From a virus (Duplodnaviria > Heunggongvirae > Uroviricota > Caudoviricetes), in the IMG/VR virus record IMGVR_UViG_2740892115_000003: DNA of 27,180 nucleotides, one strand, 5' to 3'. Made by a program: the position numbers and the translations under genes. Below the pieces are notes generated by a model. It did no database searches. It was not told the origin of the DNA and worked only from the letters and a program-made list of their open reading frames with translations. This document shows positions 8,827 to 27,180 of the stretch, piece after piece (the first letter of the stretch is position 1; the number at the start of each line of letters is the position of its first letter).

Positions 8827-9786
8827 ATGAAAATTTGTATCGATGACGGCTCCACCAACATCAAGCTGGCATGGACTGAGAACGGCGAACGCCGCAACGC
8901 CATCAGCCCGAACAGCTTCAAGTCGGAATGGTCTGCGCCGTTCGGTGGCACGCAGCCCGCGAACTACATGCTTGATGGCGTGCGCTATGGTTTTGATCCG
9001 GTCAGCGATCGCTTTGTCCAGACGACTGACACGCAATACCAGTACAGCGATGTGAATGTCATTGCCATTCATCACGCGTTGGTCAAATCAGGCATCACGC
9101 CACAGGAGGTGGATGTGGTTGTCACCCTGCCACTGAGCGAGTATTTCGACACAAACGCACAGCCGGACATAGCCAACATCAACCGCAAAAAAGCGAACGT
9201 TATGCGCCCGGTGGAGTACCAGAACGGCGAAGCATTCACTATCCGTAACGTACGGGTTATGCCTGAATCCATTCCGGCTGGCTTTAAGGCACTGGCTGAC
9301 ATGAGTCCGTTTGAATCCCTGCTGATTGTGGATTTAGGCGGAACCACGCTGGATGTGGCAAAGGTTCAGGGACAACTGGCAGGTATCAGCCAGGTGTTTT
9401 GCGATCCACACGTAGGCGTTTCCCTGATGGCCGATGCCGTACTGTCGGTGATGGCCACTAACGGTATGCGTACCAGTCACCACATCGCCAATACCATTAT
9501 CGAACATCGCCATGATGAAGCCTGGCTGCGCCAGCACATCCACAATGACGCGCATTACGCCAGCCTGATGGCGGTTATTCGTGAAAAGGAAGAAACACTG
9601 AAACAACGCGTGATCCGCGCGCTGGCGGGTTTTTCGGGTTACGGGCGGGTGATGGTTGTCGGTGGAGGGGCGGAGATTGTGGCACCCGCTATCCGCGAAG
9701 CCTGCGGAGTTAATGCGACTTTCATCGCGGACGGGGTGCCACAGTTTGCTCTGGTTAATGGGCTGTACGCAATGGACAAGGAGTAA
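8827..9786 (+). CDS. parM: Actin-like segregation ATPase, ParM/StbA family
   Basis: 319 aa; N-terminal MKICIDDGSTNIKL and LIVDLGGTTLDV phosphate-binding motifs, ESIPAG, MVVGGGAE, and C-terminal LVNGLYA follow plasmid R1 ParM along the whole length (from memory); AAGGAAAAG RBS. Confidence 0.85.
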   Translation: MKICIDDGSTNIKLAWTENGERRNAISPNSFKSEWSAPFGGTQPANYMLDGVRYGFDPVSDRFVQTTDTQYQYSDVNVIAIHHALVKSGITPQEVDVVVTLPLSEYFDTNAQPDIANINRKKANVMRPVEYQNGEAFTIRNVRVMPESIPAGFKALADMSPFESLLIVDLGGTTLDVAKVQGQLAGISQVFCDPHVGVSLMADAVLSVMATNGMRTSHHIANTIIEHRHDEAWLRQHIHNDAHYASLMAVIREKEETLKQRVIRALAGFSGYGRVMVVGGGAEIVAPAIREACGVNATFIADGVPQFALVNGLYAMDKE

Positions 9787-10165: not shown

Positions 10166-10501
10166 ATGCAACACATTGACAGAGAAAAAGCGCAGCGACT
10201 GATTGAGCGGATGGAAGCGCTGGCGAAAGAAGAAAATGTCAACATCCAAAAAATAGCTGAATGTGGCCAGATAGTTCTTCGTCGTGAAAAAGACCTCAAA
10301 CAACTGATGTCTGGCGAAACCAGCAAAACATGGACTTCAGGCGAGAAGACGGTTTATTGCAGTTTCTGCAATAAATCCCAGTACGAAGTCACAAAGGTGA
10401 TTGCCGGACCGTCTGTTTACATCTGCAATGAGTGCGTGGATTTGTGCAATGAAATTATCAGGAAAGAAGTGACAGACCATGAAGAAAAAACGCATGAATG
10501 A
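10166..10501 (+). CDS. Small protein with C-terminal ClpX-type C4 zinc-binding domain (ClpX N-domain-like)
   Basis: 111 aa; AAGGGGG RBS; residues [39 protein letters not shown] nearly duplicate the E. coli ClpX N-terminus ([39 protein letters not shown], from memory), all four Cys retained; about 65 aa of helical N-terminus precede it. Confidence 0.8.
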
Positions 10502-10667: not shown

Positions 10668-11075
10668 TTAAATATAATCTTCTTCGTAGTCGCTGATTAA
10701 TTCATTGCCATAATCAGACAGCAATTTCAAAGCAAAGGTAACTTCCTCAAGGGTAGCTATCCCCATTGCTGAAAACACCGTTAATTTAACCAGCAGCAGG
10801 GAGTTTGAAAGTTCGGAAGAGTTCATCATTAAAAATATTGATGCAGCCTGAAAAGCTGTGCGTTTATTCCCATCATGAAAGGCATGAGCCTTGGCTATAC
10901 CAATCAAATACATAGCAGCCAGAGCATGAATATCATCAACCCCTTCATAGTAGTGTAGTGTCCTGACGCGATTTAAAGCACCTTCAAGTAGCCCGTCATT
11001 GGCATTTCCGCTCTGGGGTAAAGTTTCAGCATGGATACGTTCTACTTGTTCTTTTGACAAAAACACTATGTCCAT
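10668..11075 (-). CDS. doc: Doc-family toxin (Fic fold)
   Basis: 135 aa; motif HAFHDGNKRTA fits the Fic/Doc signature Hx(F)x(D/N)(G/A)NKR; start ATG overlaps the upstream antitoxin stop (ATGA). Confidence 0.85.
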   Translation of the reverse strand: MDIVFLSKEQVERIHAETLPQSGNANDGLLEGALNRVRTLHYYEGVDDIHALAAMYLIGIAKAHAFHDGNKRTAFQAASIFLMMNSSELSNSLLLVKLTVFSAMGIATLEEVTFALKLLSDYGNELISDYEEDYI

Positions 11076-11431
11076 CAGTTATCCTCAAGCTTTTTAATGA
11101 TATCCGCATGTTTTTCTCTTGTACGCTTCATTGCATCTTCAAAAGACAATCCTTTTTTTCTCTGTGCGACAAGAGCTGGATGACGTTTTTCCAGATCTCT
11201 CACTGCATTTATTAAGAGTGGTTGCTTCATTTTGTTTATTTGATCCCGCAGTTTTTTGGTTTTGCCAAGGACAGCCCGTATTTCAGGACTAAGATCAGAA
11301 CCAGCAAGAACAACATCCTTCCCTCCCTGCGCAGTGATAACGACACTGCCACCGGAAGAAAGGTAATCCAGAATTTCACTCAGGTTCTCACGAAATTCAT
11401 CATCAGTTACAGTTTTCATATTCATTTCCAT
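11075..11431 (-). CDS. phd: Phd/YefM-type antitoxin
   Basis: Directly upstream of and overlapping doc; N-terminal KTVTDDEFRENLSEILDYLSSGGSVVIT is Phd/YefM-like. Three in-frame ATGs (11431, 11425, 11419); exact start uncertain. Confidence 0.7.
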   Translation of the reverse strand: MEMNMKTVTDDEFRENLSEILDYLSSGGSVVITAQGGKDVVLAGSDLSPEIRAVLGKTKKLRDQINKMKQPLLINAVRDLEKRHPALVAQRKKGLSFEDAMKRTREKHADIIKKLEDN

Positions 11432-13002: not shown

Positions 13003-14753
13003 CAGAACTCCATAACCGTGAAACGCTCGTTTTCTCCTTCGCCGCCAATCGGTTCGTTAATGACAGCAAGCATGGTTGCCCACGCAAGGTCGCCGTGGCT
13101 GATCCCCCTCGCGCGGTCCGTTTCGTAAGTGATAAAGCCGCCCGGTGTTTTCACCTTACGCACGGCGTTAAAGGCCGCGACCAGCTCGCGTTCGGCGCGA
13201 TCGTATTCCCACCGCCCGGCACGCATTATTTGCAGCATTTTCAGTACCAGCGACCGTTTTGATGACAGCGTGAAGGTGTACGGAATAGCAGCAGGGAAAA
13301 ACCGCTTCACTATCTGATAAACAGCCTCCCCGTTCCCGCCCGTCACATCAATGCCGATGTGTTCCACGTTGTAGCGACACGTGAACTCTTCAATGACTCT
13401 GGCCTGTTCTTCAAACTCCAGCCCCTGAACGCGTCGCGTCTCCACCGTTCGAAAACGGCCACCAGGAACAGCCGGAGGAACCACCACGGACACAGCGCCG
13501 CTGTCGCCGTTGCCACTGCTGCCGTTTGCGTCATACCCAATCCATACCGGACGATTCCCCATCGGGCGGGGAGCAAAAGGTTTCCAGTCTTTCCAGTCGT
13601 CGTATCCGTCAACACCGCAGCCAATCAGGATATTCAGGTTAAATGCCGATTCCCCTTCGCGGACAAACTCACACATATAGAGATTGAGGAACTCGTCTTC
13701 GGTGTTTTCATCACGAATTTCGTCGATATCGGTGTGTTTCCAGCCGTGATTAACCACATCTTCCAGCGTGACAATTTGCCGCCACGTCCGGTCAGGGCAG
13801 ATAAGCCCGTTATGCAGCGTTTTCCAGTCAACAGAAAAACGCTGGCGTTTATGCGTGGCCTTTTTCTCGTTCCAGCGGTCGCCGTTCCAGTAGGCGTATG
13901 CCTCGTGCGTTTCGGTGGATGGCGTGGAGAAGTAGGTGCGCCGCAGTCCGCTGAGGGTTGCCATAGCGCCAGCCACCTTGCGCAGTTCAGCAAAGCGACT
14001 GACCCAGAAAAATTCATCAAAATAAAAATTGCCCGTATAGGACTGTGCCGACGCAGCAGAAGTGCCGAGAAAATGCAGCTCTGCGCCGTTGGAGAGGATG
14101 ATTTTATCGCCCCCTTTCAGCTCCACATCAACTTCAGCCGCAGCCTTCTGAATAATGCTTTTAAACTGGAACGCCTGACGACGCGACGCAGACAAAAAAA
14201 TCTGGTTACGCTGGTAAGGTTGCGCCACATCGTCACGCAGCGCCATCAGCAGTGCTTCCTGTGCAAAATACCAGGTCGCGCCAATCTGTCGGGATTTCAG
14301 GATCATCCTGTTACGTATCCCGGCTTCCCTGCAAAGGGTCAGGGAGTCAAACCAGCCCCGCTGATGCCACTCCAGCCTGCTGATGATTTTTTCCCGCAGT
14401 GCGGCAATCTGTTCCGGCGTGAAATGATTTTTGAGTTTTTTCGCCCGGCCTTTCTTTCCTGTGGCCGTCGCATCCGGCTGGCCATCATGCATTTTTTTAA
14501 GCTGCCGGGTCAGCAGGTCTATTTCCTTAAAGTCACCGCCTGTTTTATTCTGTTTTTCAGTAAGCTGGATGAGGCGCGCATCGATGGACTGCGTGACACG
14601 CTGCACGGGTGGCGTTTCATCCCACTGGTCGCGTTTTTTCCACGCATAAATCGTGTTCGGGTTTATTCCCATCAGACGTGATATTTCTGCGGGCGGATAA
14701 CCCTGCCAGTAAAGTTGCCGCGCACGCTGGCGCACAAAAGCGTCCTGAATCAT
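13002..14753 (-). CDS. P: Terminase large (ATPase) subunit, P2 P-like
   Basis: 583-aa minus-strand ORF with GGGGGAG RBS, divergent from the capsid scaffold gene; position and size fit P2 P. Confidence 0.85.
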   Translation of the reverse strand: MIQDAFVRQRARQLYWQGYPPAEISRLMGINPNTIYAWKKRDQWDETPPVQRVTQSIDARLIQLTEKQNKTGGDFKEIDLLTRQLKKMHDGQPDATATGKKGRAKKLKNHFTPEQIAALREKIISRLEWHQRGWFDSLTLCREAGIRNRMILKSRQIGATWYFAQEALLMALRDDVAQPYQRNQIFLSASRRQAFQFKSIIQKAAAEVDVELKGGDKIILSNGAELHFLGTSAASAQSYTGNFYFDEFFWVSRFAELRKVAGAMATLSGLRRTYFSTPSTETHEAYAYWNGDRWNEKKATHKRQRFSVDWKTLHNGLICPDRTWRQIVTLEDVVNHGWKHTDIDEIRDENTEDEFLNLYMCEFVREGESAFNLNILIGCGVDGYDDWKDWKPFAPRPMGNRPVWIGYDANGSSGNGDSGAVSVVVPPAVPGGRFRTVETRRVQGLEFEEQARVIEEFTCRYNVEHIGIDVTGGNGEAVYQIVKRFFPAAIPYTFTLSSKRSLVLKMLQIMRAGRWEYDRAERELVAAFNAVRKVKTPGGFITYETDRARGISHGDLAWATMLAVINEPIGGEGENERFTVMEF

Positions 14754-14907
14754 TGCTCCCCCTGAGTAATTACAGGAAGATTACCCGCGCGCGAAACCGT
14801 TCTCCTTAACCCCCTGCTCTGACTGTTTTCTTACAACAAAAGCCCTTTGTATCTGCCTGTTACGCTTTGCCATCATGACTGAAGAACCAGTCAGAGGGGC
14901 AAAAACT
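14754..14907. promoter_or_regulatory. Divergent late promoter region (leftward P-Q operon, rightward O-N-M-L operon)
   Basis: 154-bp intergenic region between divergent late operons, as in P2; only imperfect TGT-N(11-12)-AC(A/G) activator-site candidates seen (for example 14848-14864). Confidence 0.3.
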
Positions 14908-15744
14908 ATGGCTAATGAAAAAAAGACATCCCGCAAAAAGTTTCGCGTGGCTGTCTCCGGTGTAACGGCAGACGGGCGCGAAATCAACGGCGACATGCTG
15001 AAAGCTGCCGCCACCAGTTATAACCCGTCCGTTTATGGTGCACGTGTGAATATTGAGCACATCCTGTCACCACTCCCCGGTAGCGAGTTTTCCGCTATGG
15101 GCGATGTTGTGGGGTTGAGCACCGAAGACATAACCGATGGTCCGCTGGCAGGCCGCACGGCACTGTATGCCGAAATTGAGCCGACCACTCGCATGATGTC
15201 CCTGCTTAACGATGGTAAAAAAATTTACTCCAGTATTGAGCTGGAACCACAGTCAACCATCACGGGAGGCCCTTACCTGCGCGGGCTGGCAATGACCGAC
15301 ACCCCCGCCAGCCTGGGCACGGAACGTCTGGCCTTTGCGGCACAACAACGTATGCAACTGATGACATTCAACTGTCAGCAGGGAGAGGTGGCGATGTTCA
15401 CCGCCGCTATGGAGTCGGAACTCATCGAACTCACCGAACATCGTCAGGAAGAAGGCACCCAGTGGTTTAACCGCGTTATGGGGATTATTGGCCGTGGCCG
15501 CAAAGCGGATGACGCCAGTTTCTCCCGTATTCAGGAAGCGGTGGAAGGTGTCGCAACGTCACAGGCCGACATTATCGACCGTTTTAATGCACTGGAAACC
15601 CGCCATCAGCAGGACAGCCAGAAAATCACGTCACTGACCACAGAGCTGACAACACTGAAGGAAAAGCTGTGCACGCAGGACGGCGATCCGCAGAACCGGT
15701 TCACCGCAACGGGCGCAGCCTCCGACCAGCTGGCTGACTTCTGA
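14908..15744 (+). CDS. O: Capsid scaffolding protein, P2 O-like
   Basis: Start chosen at ATG 14908 (GAGGGG RBS) rather than ORF-track 14875; N-terminus MANEKKTSRKKFRVAVSGVTADGREI parallels P2 O (MAKKVSKFFRIGVEGDTCDGRVI). Confidence 0.85.
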   Translation: MANEKKTSRKKFRVAVSGVTADGREINGDMLKAAATSYNPSVYGARVNIEHILSPLPGSEFSAMGDVVGLSTEDITDGPLAGRTALYAEIEPTTRMMSLLNDGKKIYSSIELEPQSTITGGPYLRGLAMTDTPASLGTERLAFAAQQRMQLMTFNCQQGEVAMFTAAMESELIELTEHRQEEGTQWFNRVMGIIGRGRKADDASFSRIQEAVEGVATSQADIIDRFNALETRHQQDSQKITSLTTELTTLKEKLCTQDGDPQNRFTATGAASDQLADF

Positions 15745-19583: not shown

Positions 19584-19725
19584 CCCACCCACATGGGGAA
19601 ACCTCGGAATATGGGGCGACCGCCTTCTGGATGCACTGGAAACCTGTAACGCGGATAAACGGGCCATTGCTGAACTGGATAAGAGAATAGCCGAACTGAC
19701 ACACCAGACGGGAGTAACACAATGA
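19414..19725 (+). CDS. o-spanin (Rz1/LysC-like outer-membrane lipoprotein)
   Basis: GTG at 19414 with GGAGAGG RBS; signal peptide ending in lipobox LLTGC; Pro-rich; overlaps the i-spanin in another frame. Confidence 0.65.
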   Translation: MNSYATILQKMNAPTLCLTLVLLTGCAGTQNAPGPAPSVRLIPQTLTMPVTPPPFPDPPTWGNLGIWGDRLLDALETCNADKRAIAELDKRIAELTHQTGVTQ

Positions 19726-21602
19726 CCAGTAAGAACTTTGCACTGATTACAGCCATGACACAGGCTGAACTGACTCAAAAGGTGAATGAACATCTTGCGA
19801 AAGGGTGGCATCTTCAGGGGGAGACGCGGGTTGCCTACGAACCCGGCACCCCGTGGTATCTAATGCAGGCAATGGTGGCCGATGGCACTACAGACATCTC
19901 ACCTGATTCCCCCCAGCACGGCAGCGTGCCGGAGTGGTATTACGTGGTGGTACTTGCTGGTCAATCCAATGCCATGTCATATGGTGATGGAATGCCGCTG
20001 CCGGATTCTTACGATGCGCCCCACCCACGCATTAAGCAACTGGCCCGTCGCAACACAGTGACTCCCGGTGGTAAAGCATGCGCATTTAACGACATCATTC
20101 CGGCAGACCACTGCCTGCATGATGTTCAGGATATGAGCGCACTGAATCATCCGAAGGCAGACCTGAGCAAAGGGCAGTACGGCTGTGTCGGCCAGGGCTT
20201 ACATATTGCCAAAAAACTGCTTCCGTATATCCCGAATAACGCGGGGATCCTGCTGGTACCATGCTGTCGTGGTGGTTCGGCATTCACCCAGGGCGCGGAG
20301 GGGACATTCAGTGCGGACACGGGGGCCAGCCAGGATTCGGCGCGCTGGGGTGCGGGTAAGCCGTTATATCAGGACCTGATCGCACGCACCAAAGCGGCAT
20401 TACAGAAGAACCCGAAAAATGTGTTGCTGGCGGTGTGCTGGATGCAGGGCGAATTTGACATGAGCGCTGCCACCTACGCACAGCAACCGGACCTGTTCAC
20501 GGCCATGCTGAAGCAGTTCCGTACTGACCTTTCCGGATTTAACGCGCAGTGCCATGGCGGCAGTGCTGCAGTTGTACCGTGGATTTGTGGCGACACGACG
20601 TATTACTGGAAAAACACATACGGCACACAGTATGACTCCGTCTACGGCGCGTACAAAAACAGGGAGAGCGACAACGTTTTCTTTGTGCCGTTCATGACCG
20701 ACGGTAACGGCAACAACACGCCCACCAACTTACCGGCAGAAGACCCGGATATTGCTGATGCAGGTTATTACGGCGCGCAATCCCGTAGTAATGGTAATTG
20801 GGTATCGTCAAATCGTCCGACACATTTCAGTTCATGGGCGCGCAGGGGCATTATTTCGGATCGCCTGGCAACCGCTATTCTGAACGCAGTTGGTCGAACC
20901 AGCGCCTTCATCAGCGGTACCGCACCGGAGATTAAACCCTCGCCCGGCGGCGACACGCCATCGGGGCCGTCTGATGGTGACACATCCGTTCGTACAGTCT
21001 CCCTGCTGCCGACAGCCGGAGAGGCTGCTGCGCAGGGCTGGACCATCACCGGCGGCAGTGTTGCGCTGGAAGATGGTGTGTTTAAGGTTACCAAGCAGAG
21101 CAATAAAACCTGGTCCCTGATGCATCCGGTGGATGACGCAGTCTCCCTGCTGACACGGGGTGGCAGACTGAGCTGTAAGTTTCGACTGTCAGGCGCACTG
21201 ACCAACAACCAGTTCGGTCTGGGAATTTATCTGTATACCGATGTAGCGTTACCTGACGTCGTGGCGATGACCGGGACTGGTAACCCGTTCCTGATGTCGT
21301 TCTTCACCCAGACCACAGACGGCAAACTGAATCTGATGCATCACAAGAAAGCCGGAAACACAAAGTTGGGCGAGTTCGGGAATTACAGTAACGACTGGCA
21401 GACGCTGGAGCTGGTGTTCACCGCCGGCAGTGCCACGGTTACTCCGAAACTGAATGGAGTGGCTGGCCCGGCATTCCAGGTCATAAAAGACAGTCTGACA
21501 CTGGGGCTGAATGCGCTGACGTTAACTGATATCACTAAAAATGCCGCGTACGGCGTCGATATCGGTAGCCTGGTGCTGGAAATCAATAATCCCGCAGCAT
21601 AA
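19722..21602 (+). CDS. Prophage NanS-p-like sialate O-acetylesterase (SGNH/SASA domain plus C-terminal beta-rich domain)
   Basis: 626 aa; N-terminal domain MTSKNFALITAMTQAELTQKVNEHLAKGWHL; esterase motif VVVLAGQSNAMSYGDG (catalytic Ser in GQSN); architecture and length match the NanS-p esterases of E. coli Stx prophages. Confidence 0.75.
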   Translation: MTSKNFALITAMTQAELTQKVNEHLAKGWHLQGETRVAYEPGTPWYLMQAMVADGTTDISPDSPQHGSVPEWYYVVVLAGQSNAMSYGDGMPLPDSYDAPHPRIKQLARRNTVTPGGKACAFNDIIPADHCLHDVQDMSALNHPKADLSKGQYGCVGQGLHIAKKLLPYIPNNAGILLVPCCRGGSAFTQGAEGTFSADTGASQDSARWGAGKPLYQDLIARTKAALQKNPKNVLLAVCWMQGEFDMSAATYAQQPDLFTAMLKQFRTDLSGFNAQCHGGSAAVVPWICGDTTYYWKNTYGTQYDSVYGAYKNRESDNVFFVPFMTDGNGNNTPTNLPAEDPDIADAGYYGAQSRSNGNWVSSNRPTHFSSWARRGIISDRLATAILNAVGRTSAFISGTAPEIKPSPGGDTPSGPSDGDTSVRTVSLLPTAGEAAAQGWTITGGSVALEDGVFKVTKQSNKTWSLMHPVDDAVSLLTRGGRLSCKFRLSGALTNNQFGLGIYLYTDVALPDVVAMTGTGNPFLMSFFTQTTDGKLNLMHHKKAGNTKLGEFGNYSNDWQTLELVFTAGSATVTPKLNGVAGPAFQVIKDSLTLGLNALTLTDITKNAAYGVDIGSLVLEINNPAA

Positions 21603-24546: not shown

Positions 24547-25147
24547 TTCGTTGTTACCACCATCAGCCAGCAATTTCATGCGTTGTGCCGAAGCCGTCGG
24601 AACACGCATTACAGACATTCCGGTAGACCTCAACACGCTGTGGTCGCCGGACACCTGCCCGGTGCATCTGCTGCCTTATCTCGCCTGGGCGTTTTCCGTT
24701 GACCGCTGGGATCGCAACTGGCCGGAAGAGACAAAGCGACAGGTGATTCGTGATGCATGGCTGATACACCGACACAAAGGGACCATCAGCGCACTGCGAA
24801 GAGCCGTGGAGCCTCTCGGCTACCTGATTGAAGTAAAGGAGTGGTGGCAACTCAACGAGGAGCCGGGAACATTTCGCATTGTTGTCGGAGTACTTGATCA
24901 GGGCATCACCGATGAAATGTATCAGGAACTTGAGCGCCTTATTGCGGATGCAAAACCAGTAAGTCGCCATCTGACGGGGCTGGCGATCAGCCTGAGTGTG
25001 AACGGAAAGATTTTCGTTGGTACGGGATGCTATCACGGCGATGCCCTGACGGTTTATCCCTACACCCCGGAGTCCATTATTGTCGAAGGGGATTATTTCC
25101 CTGCCCCGGCCATTCATTTAATTGATAATCTGAGAGTAAACGCATGA
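24539..25147 (+). CDS. I: Tail protein, P2 I-like
   Basis: ATG at 24539 overlapping the J 3' end (ORF-track 24506 is upstream in frame); 202 aa. Confidence 0.8.
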   Translation: MSNSLLPPSASNFMRCAEAVGTRITDIPVDLNTLWSPDTCPVHLLPYLAWAFSVDRWDRNWPEETKRQVIRDAWLIHRHKGTISALRRAVEPLGYLIEVKEWWQLNEEPGTFRIVVGVLDQGITDEMYQELERLIADAKPVSRHLTGLAISLSVNGKIFVGTGCYHGDALTVYPYTPESIIVEGDYFPAPAIHLIDNLRVNA

Positions 25148-26874
25148 CAGTGAAATACTACGCCATTCTGACTAATCAGGGCGCGGCACGACTGGCTAAC
25201 GCGACGATGCTCGGCAGTAAGCTGAATCTGACGCGAATGGCCGTTGGTGATGCAAATGGTGTGTTACCAACACCAGACCCTGCACAAACAAAACTGATTA
25301 ACCAGAAACGCATTGCACCGCTGAATCTTCTGAGTGTTGACCCTAACAATCAGAGCCAGATTATTGCGGAGCAAATCATCCCTGAAAGCGAGGGAGGATT
25401 CTGGATCCGTGAGATTGGTCTTTATGATGATAAAGGTGTACTCATTGCGGTGGCAAACTGCCCGGAAACGTACAAACCGCAGTTGCAGGAAGGCAGTGGA
25501 CGCACCCAGACTATCCGCATGATTCTGGTTGTCACGAACACCGAAGCCATCACGCTGAAAATCGACCCGTCTGTGGTTCTGGCAACCCGCAAATATGTGG
25601 ATGATAAAATATCAGAGCACGAGCAGTCACGACGTCACCCGGACGCCTCGCTGACCGCAAAAGGCTTTGTTCAACTTAGCAGCGCCACCAACAGCACCTC
25701 TGAAACGCTGGCCGCAACACCGAAAGCGGTTAAGGCTGCATATGACCTGGCTAACGGGAAATATACCGCTCAGGATGCGACTACGGCACGAAAAGGCCTT
25801 GTTCAACTCAGTAGCGCCACAAACAGCACGTCTGAAACGCTGGCCGCAACACCGAAAGCGGTTAAGGCTGCATATGACCTGGCTAACGGGAAATATACCG
25901 CTCAGGATGCGACTGCGGCACGAAAAGGCCTTGTTCAACTCAGTAGCGCCACAAACAGCACGTCTGAAACGCTGGCAGCGACACCAAAAGCTGTTAAGGC
26001 GGTAATGGATGAAACGAACAAGAAAGCGCCCTTAAATAGTCCTGCACTGACCGGAACGCCAACAACACCAACTGCGCGACAGGGAACGAATAATACCCAA
26101 ATCGCAAGCACGGCTTTCGTTATGGCTGCGATTGCCGCCCTTGTAGATTCGTCACCTGATGCACTGAACACGCTGAACGAGCTGGCTGCGGCGCTGGGCA
26201 ACGACCCGAATTTTGCGACCACCATAACTAACGCGCTTGCGGGTAAGCAACCGAAGGATGCCACCCTGACGGCGCTGGCGGAGCTTGCTACATCAGCAGA
26301 TAAACTCCCATATTTTAAAGGGGCAGATCGTGCCGCGTTAACTGCACTGACAAGTGTTGGACGCGCCATTCTTGGTAAGACCAGTATTCAGAGCGTTCTT
26401 GATTACCTTGGTTTGGGGGAAGGCTCTGCATTGCCTGTTGGTGTACCGGTTCCATGGCCCACCGCCACACCGCCAGCAGGCTGGTTACAGTGCAACGGAG
26501 CTACGTTCACCAAAGAACAATATCCTGTTCTGGCCAGAGTCTACCCGACCCTCCGTCTTCCCGATTTACGCGGTGAGTTTATCCGTGGATGGGACGGTGG
26601 TCGCAAGGTTGATACCGGGCGTGCGCTACTTTCATTTCAGGAAGGGACTATCGTATCCGGTTTTGATGATAATGATACCGGAGATATCAGTTCGCTCGGC
26701 TCTACACAATACGGATTTGGTGACGCTTTAACCTCTAATCAACTGGGGGTCATAAATGGCAAAAAGTGGATATTTGATGCATCCTCTAAAGGTGCACGAA
26801 GACATGACTGGTGGGCTTATGTATCAGCTCGCCCCCGCAATATCGCATTTAACTATATCGTGAGGGCGGCGTGA
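25144..26874 (+). CDS. H: Tail fibre protein, P2 H-like, with internal tandem repeats and a variable receptor-binding C-terminus
   Basis: 576 aa; conserved H-type N-terminus (MTVKYYAILTNQGAARLANA...); C-terminal PWP...GWL.CNG..F....YP.L...YP.LRLPDLRGEFIRGWDGGR is the common tail-fibre distal-domain pattern. Confidence 0.85.
   Translation: MTVKYYAILTNQGAARLANATMLGSKLNLTRMAVGDANGVLPTPDPAQTKLINQKRIAPLNLLSVDPNNQSQIIAEQIIPESEGGFWIREIGLYDDKGVLIAVANCPETYKPQLQEGSGRTQTIRMILVVTNTEAITLKIDPSVVLATRKYVDDKISEHEQSRRHPDASLTAKGFVQLSSATNSTSETLAATPKAVKAAYDLANGKYTAQDATTARKGLVQLSSATNSTSETLAATPKAVKAAYDLANGKYTAQDATAARKGLVQLSSATNSTSETLAATPKAVKAVMDETNKKAPLNSPALTGTPTTPTARQGTNNTQIASTAFVMAAIAALVDSSPDALNTLNELAAALGNDPNFATTITNALAGKQPKDATLTALAELATSADKLPYFKGADRAALTALTSVGRAILGKTSIQSVLDYLGLGEGSALPVGVPVPWPTATPPAGWLQCNGATFTKEQYPVLARVYPTLRLPDLRGEFIRGWDGGRKVDTGRALLSFQEGTIVSGFDDNDTGDISSLGSTQYGFGDALTSNQLGVINGKKWIFDASSKGARRHDWWAYVSARPRNIAFNYIVRAA
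25659..26000 (+). repeat. Tandem 132-bp repeats (about 2.6 copies) inside the tail fibre gene
   Basis: Near-identical units encoding KGFVQLSSATNSTSETLAATPKAVKAAYDLANGKYTAQDATTAR start near 25659 and 25792, with a partial third from about 25923. Confidence 0.8.
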
Positions 26875-26880
26875 TACCGT

Positions 26881-27180
26881 TCAGCCGGCAAGCGCCAGTG
26901 GCGCTTCCGGCCAGCTGATTTCAGGTGCCTTGCTGATATCCAGTGCGTTCAGCTCGTCGATATAATCCAGCACGGCGTTCAGTTTTGCCGTTTCTTCTGG
27001 TTTCAGACTGCGACCTGCCCGCAGTTTGAGGTTGATGAGGTCGATGGACTTCATCGCCTGATCCACCCGTTTCTGGCGTTGCTGTCTGGCAACCTCCAGT
27101 TCTGCGGCTCGCTGCCGTTCAGTATCGGTTACCCACGCCTCACCGTTCCAGGTATCCCATGGCGTGGCTGGCTGTTTTGT
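26881..27180 (-). CDS. Tail fibre assembly (chaperone) protein, Tfa/P2 G-like, C-terminal part; 5' end beyond the window
   Basis: Minus-strand frame open from 27180 to stop at 26881; C-terminus ...DISKAPEISWPEAPLALAG matches the conserved Tfa C-terminal pattern (P2 G ends ...DPANPEWPEMPQ, from memory). Confidence 0.6.
   Translation of the reverse strand, partial: TKQPATPWDTWNGEAWVTDTERQRAAELEVARQQRQKRVDQAMKSIDLINLKLRAGRSLKPEETAKLNAVLDYIDELNALDISKAPEISWPEAPLALAG

Follow-up and report, generated by a model that had tools for sequence, protein, structure and literature searches.

The window analysed here, a 27,180-nt stretch of a virus of the class Caudoviricetes, very probably (about 0.9) ends within an invertible host-range cassette of the Gin/Cin/Pin type, carried by a P2-like prophage. 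The case is built on sequence: the anatomy of the cassette, an in-frame fusion of the alternative tip, the family of the invertase and the natural occurrence of both orientations all support it. In the proposed mechanism, the invertase would recombine two inverted 26-bp sites and thereby flip a 1,604-bp segment. In the orientation of the window (orientation A), the constant part of the tail fibre gene H and tip a would encode a 576-aa fibre, with the assembly gene (Tfa) and tip b silent on the opposite strand. In orientation B, the constant part would be joined in frame to tip b as a 593-aa fibre, with Tfa directly downstream through an overlapping stop and start and tip a stored backwards. 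Two such states would therefore let a lysogen population release particles with either tip, and these mixed particles may act as bet-hedging on host range, with tips a and b probably binding different receptors. This kind of cassette is already known; its unusual part is the presence of one chaperone gene for two tips. As we read them, the last genes of the window are half of a programmed-inversion host-range switch and should therefore be annotated as two alternative fibres, not as a fibre, an orphan chaperone and a 'pseudogene'.

The fibre gene and its convergent neighbour

By Pfam, H (ORF 25144..26874, plus strand; stop codon TGA at 26872-26874) combines an N-terminal Phage_tail_fib domain (residues 1-150), three Phage_fiber_2 repeats and a Collar domain (residues 433-480), and it shares 88-90% nucleotide identity with P2 H over window positions 25594-26291. 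A minus-strand ORF with its stop at 26881-26883 converges on it and stays open past the window end, with 100 codons in view. The first-pass annotation had placed this Tfa-like ORF 6 bp from the end of H, and both the coordinates and the assignment agree with our results: the complete product, Tfa' (204 aa, Table 1), matched Pfam Caudo_TAP (E 2.4e-27) and carries the annotation 'tail fiber assembly protein', the visible ORF being its C-terminal half. Comparison of Tfa with solved structures gave no significant match. Convergent stops 6 bp apart are by themselves statistically unremarkable, and the same spacing recurs in L004-L006, L010 and L012; the junction is noteworthy because an inverted repeat and crossover sites accompany it. 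The further claim that H lacks a downstream chaperone gene in the same orientation also held, as no plus-strand ORF of at least 40 aa was found from 26874 to 27180 and none of the short plus-strand ORFs 3' of H in L001 is annotated as a gene.

L001, an Escherichia coli chromosome that matches the window without a single mismatch across 14,037 bp, gave access to the region beyond the window end. There, the minus-strand sequence 5' of Tfa' encodes a fibre tip that lacks a start codon and has a Collar domain (tip b); the stop codon of this tip overlaps the Tfa' start (TAATG). An invertase gene, annotated 'recombinase family protein', lies to the right of the right crossover site. Both elements had been predicted from the window, namely a second, reverse-oriented fibre tip and a Cin/Gin/Hin-type invertase just past its end. 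A further prophage (L002, 99.5% identical) has the same layout as L001.

Table 1. Positions of the cassette features in the window and in the E. coli chromosome L001; eq., window-equivalent position.
Feature	Window	L001	Strand	Basis
H constant part (attachment domain, three fibre repeats, shaft, to crossover core)	25144..26407		+	ORF, Pfam, P2 H identity
Left crossover site, 26 bp, inside H	26396..26421		.	gix layout, inverted partner
Inverted repeat, left arm; encodes collar domain common to both tips	26405..26633	13262-13490	.	Repeat search
Variable tip fused to H (tip a)	26408..26874		+	Pfam Collar, structure matches
Spacer between H and Tfa' stops	26875..26880		.	Sequence
Tfa', 3' 300 nt (C-terminal 99 codons and stop)	26881..27180		-	Translation, L001
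Tfa', complete	26881-27495 (eq.)	13738-14352	-	Pfam Caudo_TAP
Tip b		14352-14870	-	Collar domain
Inverted repeat, right arm		14644-14872	.	Repeat search
Right crossover site, inverted	27999-28024 (eq.)	14856-14881	.	
Invertase gene		14936-15535	+	Pfam, Gin identity

Crossover sites and predicted inversion

Inverted sites of 20-30 bp, one of them inside H near its constant/variable junction, had been anticipated, and two 26-bp sites were found in these places; the left one covers position 26400, where the first-pass annotation had set the beginning of its region. The left site, TTCTTGATTACC TT GGTTTGGGGGAA, encodes ..LDYLGLGE.. within H (core TT at 26408-26409) and has the layout of the Mu gix site, TTATCCAAAACC TC GGTTTACAGGAA; its inverted partner reads AAAACGAAAACG TT GGTTTGGGGGAA. 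In each, a 2-bp core separates two imperfect 12-bp half-sites, and the two cores are identical. Across the 26 kb searched, there was no crossover-site match beyond these 2, and none of 100 shuffles attained that number. The sites flank the 1,604-bp segment and head a 229-nt inverted repeat (90% complementary) that is perfect for 80 nt from the core onward. When the segment was flipped in silico, the constant part of H stayed where it was and the outcome was an in-frame H' of 593 aa that ends in ..NYIVRAV and is coupled through TAATG to Tfa' downstream; tip b and Tfa' are both intact ORFs.

Both orientations in nature

The flipped arrangement occurs naturally in a sister prophage (L003), which encodes the fusion of H to tip b. 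Among complete E. coli genomes, the orientation A junction was found in 166 and the orientation B junction in 283 (coverage ≥80%). A homologous cassette in a different prophage from that of the window captures the inversion itself: the near-clonal strains MS1494 and MS1737 (L005 and L006) have identical flanks (4,512 and 3,895 bp) around a middle of 1,591 bp that is an exact reverse complement between them, with the breakpoint within a 7-bp TTGGTTT that contains the site core. Phase variation of the tail-fibre loci of a P2-like prophage in enteropathogenic E. coli (EPEC) E2348/69 has been demonstrated by sequencing and PCR (Goldberg 2014, PMC4272514). Taken together, the natural orientations and the experiment in a relative indicate that the segment inverts, a statement that applies to the cassette family and not to this exact prophage. 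The orientation found in any one assembly is a population snapshot and no fixed genotype.

Two tips and one chaperone gene

The segment contains two tips and one Caudo_TAP gene, and tip a lacks a same-strand chaperone gene. The comparison with Mu G or P1 C cassettes drawn in the first-pass annotation therefore needs amending: the inverted alternative tip, the in-frame fusion and the invertase are all as in those systems, but there is one chaperone gene, not two. At about 155-172 aa the tips are short, and they belong to a family with a constant collar, a variable insert of 60-90 aa and a conserved C-terminal strand. In tip a, the collar domain is followed by an insert of ~75 aa and the conserved end ..RPRNIAFNYIVRAA; it resembles the tip of T4 gp37 (2xgf) in the collar and C-terminal strand, and also the short tail fibre 9cuy. 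Tips a and b have inserts that show no sequence relationship to each other, as would be compatible with binding to different receptors. For P2-type phages and tailocins, the tip family represents a natural library of swappable receptor-binding modules.

Several observations suggest that tip a may give a working fibre without a chaperone in cis. Its distal, receptor-binding part is under purifying selection (dN/dS 0.13-0.16 against the diverged copies in L010 and L011), and the tip is intact in L001, L002, L004-L006, L008, L010 and L011. Cassettes with a single Tfa and two to five tips recur across various prophage backbones and in one Klebsiella phage. Orientation A was assembled in the 166 genomes given above. 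Mutations in T4 gene 37 are able to bypass gp38, and chaperone independence is therefore attainable. In a 2026 study of xenorhabdicin, the fibre gene alone was sufficient, and the choice between a common chaperone and none was left undecided (PMC13280938). All of these points weigh against an on/off switch, in which the tip a fibre could not fold while the sole chaperone gene is antisense, leaving particles non-infective or reliant on the Tfa of other prophages. We consider such a switch improbable, although one Tfa for two tips is what it would look like, Tfa follows every tip in related phages with fixed, non-invertible fibres, and the stored tip a of L003 is annotated as frameshifted. Transcription signals point the same way as these last observations. 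No sigma-70 promoter for Tfa' was found on its strand between the invertase and Tfa' in the orientation of the window, and the U gene further along is followed by a conserved, terminator-like hairpin (12-bp stem and T-run).

A further and less probable reading is that the cassette alternates between a chaperone-coupled tip (tip b with Tfa) and a chaperone-free, self-folding tip a. More generally, the collar-type tips that two- to five-tip cassettes store without Tfa in cis would then be receptor-binding modules that fold either unaided or with a common chaperone. In a weaker form, confined to this lineage, the FI-U operon could supply Tfa transcripts when Tfa faces away from H. As a source of Tfa, read-through from FI-U was rejected: the U hairpin is conserved to the same degree whether a cassette has one chaperone or two and so cannot tell the cassette types apart, and the same cassette also occurs at a prophage end with the invertase beside host genes (L004-L006). 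A P2-type late promoter ahead of Tfa' was likewise rejected. Under a strict search, the motif TGT-N12-ACA was matched 4 times in 26 kb, where ~6 matches are expected by chance, with 0 at the known late promoter regions, and the match near the invertase start is thus put down to chance. No sequence signature divided tips with a cis Tfa from those without; tip e of L010, which lacks Tfa, is similar to tip g of L013, which has one, and the ending ..RPRN(I/V)AFNYIVRAA is common to all tips.

The invertase and its enhancer

The invertase (199 aa; Pfam Resolvase, E 2e-51, and HTH_7) is 73% identical to Mu Gin, matched the Gin structures 4m6f and 3uj3 at E 2e-91, and shares 99.0% identity with its counterpart in the EPEC P2-like prophage (L012). 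In systems of this family, a recombinational enhancer acts in cis through two Fis sites, which as a rule are located towards the 5' end of the invertase gene. Here, nt 94-108 of the invertase gene form one Fis-like 15-mer, GAAGATAAAATCAGC, at a position shared with gin; no second Fis site was recognised. Around this 15-mer, identity at synonymous codons between diverged invertase genes reaches 0.76 (codons 25-36), compared with ~0.35 elsewhere. The protein carries K46, K47 and R50 as well as Q-I-A-R-L in ..KEQHEQIARLIKNG.., at the positions that, with Hin numbering aligned by eye, have been tied to Fis dependence: specific basic residues of helix B (Hin 47, 48 and 51) and Q151/R154/L155 of helix 1 of the DNA-binding domain (PMC3798978). 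We infer that inversion would depend on Fis and on a putative enhancer.

These features also bear on the possibility that the cassette of the window's prophage is a frozen relic, with its parts in place and inversion lost. The partly seen enhancer would fit such a loss, as would the orientation shared by L001 and L002, but these are the only two near-identical copies, both in the orientation of the window, and a bias in orientation cannot be judged from two genomes. We regard a relic as quite unlikely, given that the invertase ORF is intact with Ser9 present and its protein is identical to that of the oppositely oriented L003 (WP_001375851.1), that the TT cores and the 80-bp perfect inverted repeat have been kept, and that the tip b and Tfa' ORFs are undamaged.

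Prophage context

The prophage encodes an integrase, GPA, annotated Q/P/O/N/M/L/X, lysis genes and R/S/V/W/J/I/H; 3' of the invertase, the FI-FII-E-T-U late operon lies on the minus strand and reads toward the cassette. From this gene set and an order matching phage 500465-2, the prophage can be classed at the sequence level as P2-like and Gemsvirus-like (Peduoviridae), the latter label resting on gene order and not on overall nucleotide identity. The reversed FI-U block and an apparently truncated D raised the possibility of a defective, rearranged prophage, which was rejected: the order is normal in 500465-2 and in all relatives examined, and D is an intact 369-aa ORF when read from an upstream ATG. 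The FI-U operon also bears on the alternative that the first-pass annotation itself had named, in which the reverse ORF is simply part of a separate convergent downstream operon with no invertible element; this has next to no likelihood, since, although convergent stops are all that shows within the window alone and a convergent FI-FII-E-T-U does exist past the invertase, Tfa' has only the start-less tip fragment ahead of it on its strand, is flanked by inverted crossover sites, adjoins a Gin-like invertase, is separated from FI-U by the conserved terminator-like hairpin and is found flipped in nature.

Comparison with known systems

The invertible cassette is most readily compared with Mu G/Gin. 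In both, the invertase gene lies directly right of the segment on the plus strand, alternative fibre C-termini are stored inverted, and the 26-bp sites follow the half-site pattern ..AAACC NN GGTTT.., with one site at the constant/variable junction of the fibre. The Mu G segment differs in its length of ~3 kb and its two tip-chaperone pairs (Sv-U and U'-S'v), against 1.6 kb and one Tfa here; Mu has only a short repeat, whereas the tips described here have a 229-nt collar-coding repeat in common, and the backbone here is P2-like. P1 C/Cin, e14 P/Pin and p15B Min are alike in recombinase family and in the swapping of fibre C-termini, a likeness drawn from their description and not from sequence. 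P1 and e14 have two chaperone genes each, and p15B Min reportedly has several tips, as in L010.

Closer in backbone is the 'shufflon' of EPEC E2348/69 (PMC4272514), which has the phage lineage and gene order in common with the window's prophage. L012, from an E2348/69 strain background, appears from its layout and segment sizes to be this published locus. It has the same collar-type tip family, a single reverse Tfa and the 6-bp convergent junction, but three tips (c, d and f), three repeats and four configurations, where the cassette of the window has two tips (a and b) and two configurations. A less complex locus with two variants, in a different P2-like prophage, is noted in the EPEC study as well (PMC4272514).

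In the carotovoricin Er and xenorhabdicin loci, which have P2-type tails and are tailocins rather than prophages, inversion of the fibre C-terminus likewise alters the killing spectrum, and extra fibre fragments occur without chaperones of their own (PMC13280938). Xenorhabdicin loci are reported to lack a linked invertase (PMC13280938). The single-chaperone layout touches the question raised by xenorhabdicin, namely whether each alternative tip needs its own chaperone.

Phage 500465-2 (Peduoviridae, Gemsvirus) matches the window in the N-terminus of H (98% nucleotide identity) and in the order I, H, cassette, DNA invertase, U-T-E-FII-FI on the opposite strand, and D. It differs in having the classical cassette with a pair of chaperones (H-Tfa / Tfa'-tip'), and the two invertases share 83% identity.

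An invertible tail fibre cassette spans the window end

The tail fibre gene H converges on a reverse-strand, Tfa-like open reading frame (ORF) with 6 bp between their stops. This arrangement, described in the first-pass annotation, was confirmed by coordinates and reading frames; its remark that no same-strand chaperone follows H also stood, as the window holds no plus-strand ORF of ≥40 aa 3' of H. Domains recognised in H are an N-terminal fibre domain of the P2 type, Phage_fiber_2 in three repeats, and Collar at residues 433–480. A megablast search with the last 2 kb of the window matched an E. coli chromosome (NZ_OZ039818.1, locus L001) with 0 mismatches across a 14,037 bp overlap (window position = L001 + 13,143). 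In this chromosome and in a second one (L002, 99.5% identity), the reverse ORF extends into a complete tail fibre assembly gene (Tfa'), preceded on its strand by an alternative fibre C-terminus (tip b) whose stop overlaps the Tfa' start (TAATG). An invertase gene lies beyond. Thus, the reverse-strand fibre tip and the Cin/Gin/Hin-type invertase anticipated past position 27180 were both found, as were inverted crossover sites, one of them in H at the constant/variable junction. The left site encodes ..LDYLGLGEG.., the shaft/collar junction of the fibre, and both sites share their layout with Mu gix (TTATCCAAAACC TC GGTTTACAGGAA, read off at the annotated ends of the Mu G segment). When 26 kb were scanned with a degenerate 21-mer of the site, only these two positions matched, and 0 of 100 shuffled controls gave two matches.

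Features of the cassette and the surrounding prophage (W, window; L001, identical E. coli locus)
Feature	Position	Strand	Description
Early genes	W		integrase; repressor-like HTH protein; GPA replication protein; ParM-like protein; Phd/Doc pair
Early-region accessory genes	W 8827-9786, 10166-10501, 10668-11431		Phd/Doc (Fic) pair on - strand
Late genes	W		portal, terminase, capsid, lysis; tail R, S, V, W, J, I, H
SASA ORF	W 19722-21602		626 aa; DUF1737, SASA (sialate O-acetylesterase-like), DUF6645
H	W 25144-26874	+	576 aa; TGA at 26872-26874
Repeat in H	W 25659-26000		132-bp unit, 2.6 copies, 95% identity
Left crossover site	W 26396-26421		TTCTTGATTACC TT GGTTTGGGGGAA; 26 bp, core TT 26408-26409; heads inverted repeat
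Inverted repeat	W 26405-26633; L001 14644-14872		229 nt, 90% complementary, first 80 nt identical
Reverse ORF (Tfa' 3' part)	W, stop 26881-26883, open to window end	-	100 codons visible
Tfa'	L001 13738-14352	-	204 aa, Caudo_TAP
Tip b	L001 14352-14870	-	172-aa fibre C-terminus, Collar, no N-terminus
Right crossover site	L001 14856-14881	inverted	AAAACGAAAACG TT GGTTTGGGGGAA; 26 bp
Invertase	L001 14936-15535	+	199 aa, Resolvase + HTH_7; 65 bp past tip b
Hairpin	L001 15525-15554		12-bp stem (AAAACCGCTAAT..ATTAGCGGTTTT), T-runs on both strands
Sheath, tube, E, tape-measure, U genes	L001 15562-21147	opposite to H	convergent on invertase and cassette
Genes past invertase (U, T, E, FII, FI; D)		U-FI opposite to H; D +
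Right-end genes	L001 22587-25503		PIN-domain protein; ogr; Hok/Gef toxin; Com-family regulator, then DNA methyltransferase

Both orientations occur in sequenced genomes

Reversing L001 13265-14869 in silico yielded an in-frame 593-aa fibre, in which the first 421 residues are unchanged and followed by tip b, ending in ..SIALNYIVRAV. In this orientation (B), Tfa' directly follows on the fibre's strand, and the C-terminus fused to H in the window (tip a, orientation A) is stored backwards beside the invertase. A sister prophage (L003) carries this predicted arrangement with the same gene order, the identical invertase accession (WP_001375851.1) and ~95% cassette identity. Probes of 973 nt, each joining 200 nt of the constant H region to one of the tips, detected (coverage ≥80%) orientation A in 166 and orientation B in 283 of 5,426 complete E. 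coli genomes. The isolates MS1494 and MS1737, obtained from chickens in a single study and with chromosomes measuring 4,787,756 and 4,787,760 bp, both contain a homologous cassette, which lies within a different myovirus prophage and occupies the same position in each. Across the 10-kb stretches compared, their flanks were identical over 4,512 and 3,895 bp, whereas the 1,591 bp in the middle were exact reverse complements, with the breakpoint within a 7-bp TTGGTTT holding the core dinucleotide. Coexisting orientations of tail-fibre loci were reported, by sequencing and PCR, for P2-like prophages of EPEC E2348/69 (Goldberg et al. 2014, PMC4272514). The EPEC-derived locus L012 encodes an invertase 99.0% identical to that of the window phage, and its core-to-core distances (~2,003 and ~1,564 bp) plus the 229-nt repeat arm come near the "around 2,200" and "around 1,800" bp given in PMC4272514; we infer that it is the same locus. 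The element belongs to a familiar class of system for which a near-identical relative provides experimental documentation.

Predicted inversion mechanism

The top solved-structure matches of the invertase were Mu Gin structures (E 2e-91). It shares 73% identity with Gin and retains Ser9. K46, K47 and R50 are also present, as is Q-IARL within helix 1 of the DNA-binding domain (Hin numbering placed by eye); these latter positions are conserved only among Fis/enhancer-dependent invertases (PMC3798978). By analogy with the Gin/Hin/Cin/Pin family, invertase dimers would bind both sites and, together with Fis on an enhancer, assemble an invertasome on supercoiled DNA; cleavage at the 2-bp cores would then be followed by strand exchange via subunit rotation (PMC3798978). 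A comparison of diverged invertase genes showed raised synonymous codon identity at codons 1-12 (0.67) and 25-36 (0.76), relative to ~0.35 elsewhere. A Fis-like 15-mer (gene nt 94-108, the same position as in Mu gin) sits within the second peak. This pattern could hint at an enhancer lying within the invertase reading frame.

One chaperone gene in cassettes with several tips

The first-pass annotation likened the locus to the invertible cassettes of Mu (G segment) and P1 (C segment). Its observation and its interpretation were both correct as to the invertible segment, alternative tip, invertase and sites; the locus differs from the Mu/P1 model in carrying a single chaperone gene and two tips. 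This layout is widespread in sequenced genomes: one-Tfa cassettes held two (window, L004-L006), three (L012, with its Tfa reversed) or five tips (L010), and a Klebsiella phage shares the layout. By contrast, every tip is paired with a Tfa inside the cassette in phage 500465-2 and L013, as is each tip of the non-invertible Erwinia phage EtG. No same-strand Tfa was found 3' of tip a, the tip expressed in the window, in any locus examined. The five-tip cassette of a related prophage (NZ_AP031375.1, L010 5617-8636) is a shufflon-like multiple-inversion system, comprising a fused tip, three stored same-strand tips and one reverse-strand tip, together with one invertase gene and only one Tfa, in reverse orientation.

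Tips across the fetched loci form one family. The collar (GLGEGSALPVGVPVPWP...LPDLRGEFIRGWDDGR) is conserved, as is the end, RPRN(I/V)AFNYIVRAA, which resembles the T4 gp37 C-terminal strand; between them lies an insert that varies in sequence (60-90 aa, at least seven types). The distal part of tip a is under purifying selection, with dN/dS values of 0.13-0.16 against L010 and L011 (~16 synonymous vs 10 non-synonymous differences). The stored tip a of the sister prophage (L003 8305-8767) is annotated as frameshifted, the sole damaged copy among the loci examined. No promoter for Tfa' was found in orientation A. A conserved terminator-like hairpin separates the cassette from the convergent FI-U late tail operon; located between the invertase and U stops in L001 and conserved in L003, L007 and L010-L013, it looks like a bidirectional terminator. 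Tip a may fold chaperone-free or with Tfa from another source, or may fail to fold. We found no explanation for the one-chaperone, two-tip layout within the searchable literature; a recent xenorhabdicin study raises the same question on fibre tips and chaperones (PMC13280938).

Other genes of the prophage

The left and central portions of a P2-like prophage make up the window. In P2, the sheath-to-U genes follow H-G on the same strand, whereas here they are reversed. Since this order recurs in Escherichia phage 500465-2 (Peduoviridae, Gemsvirus) and in every relative examined, it is a trait of the lineage rather than damage. D is intact if read from an upstream ATG. The repeat within H encodes three near-identical copies of a 44-aa Phage_fiber_2 repeat (..KGLVQLSSATNSTSETLAATPKAVKAAYDLANGKYTAQDAT..); because the H proteins of relatives span 501-587 aa, fibre length may vary by repeat copy number.

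The SASA ORF, between the lysis genes and R, is present in L001-L003 and absent from this position in the related prophages L010-L013, where R directly follows lysC; it is a possible moron or carbohydrate esterase associated with the virion. In the early region are genes for a ParM-like actin (StbA_N + ParM), the Phd/Doc (Fic) pair and a small ClpX-type C4 zinc-finger protein; none of these is known to occur in P2. At the right end of the prophage, the Com-family regulator and methyltransferase genes resemble the com-mom arrangement of Mu.
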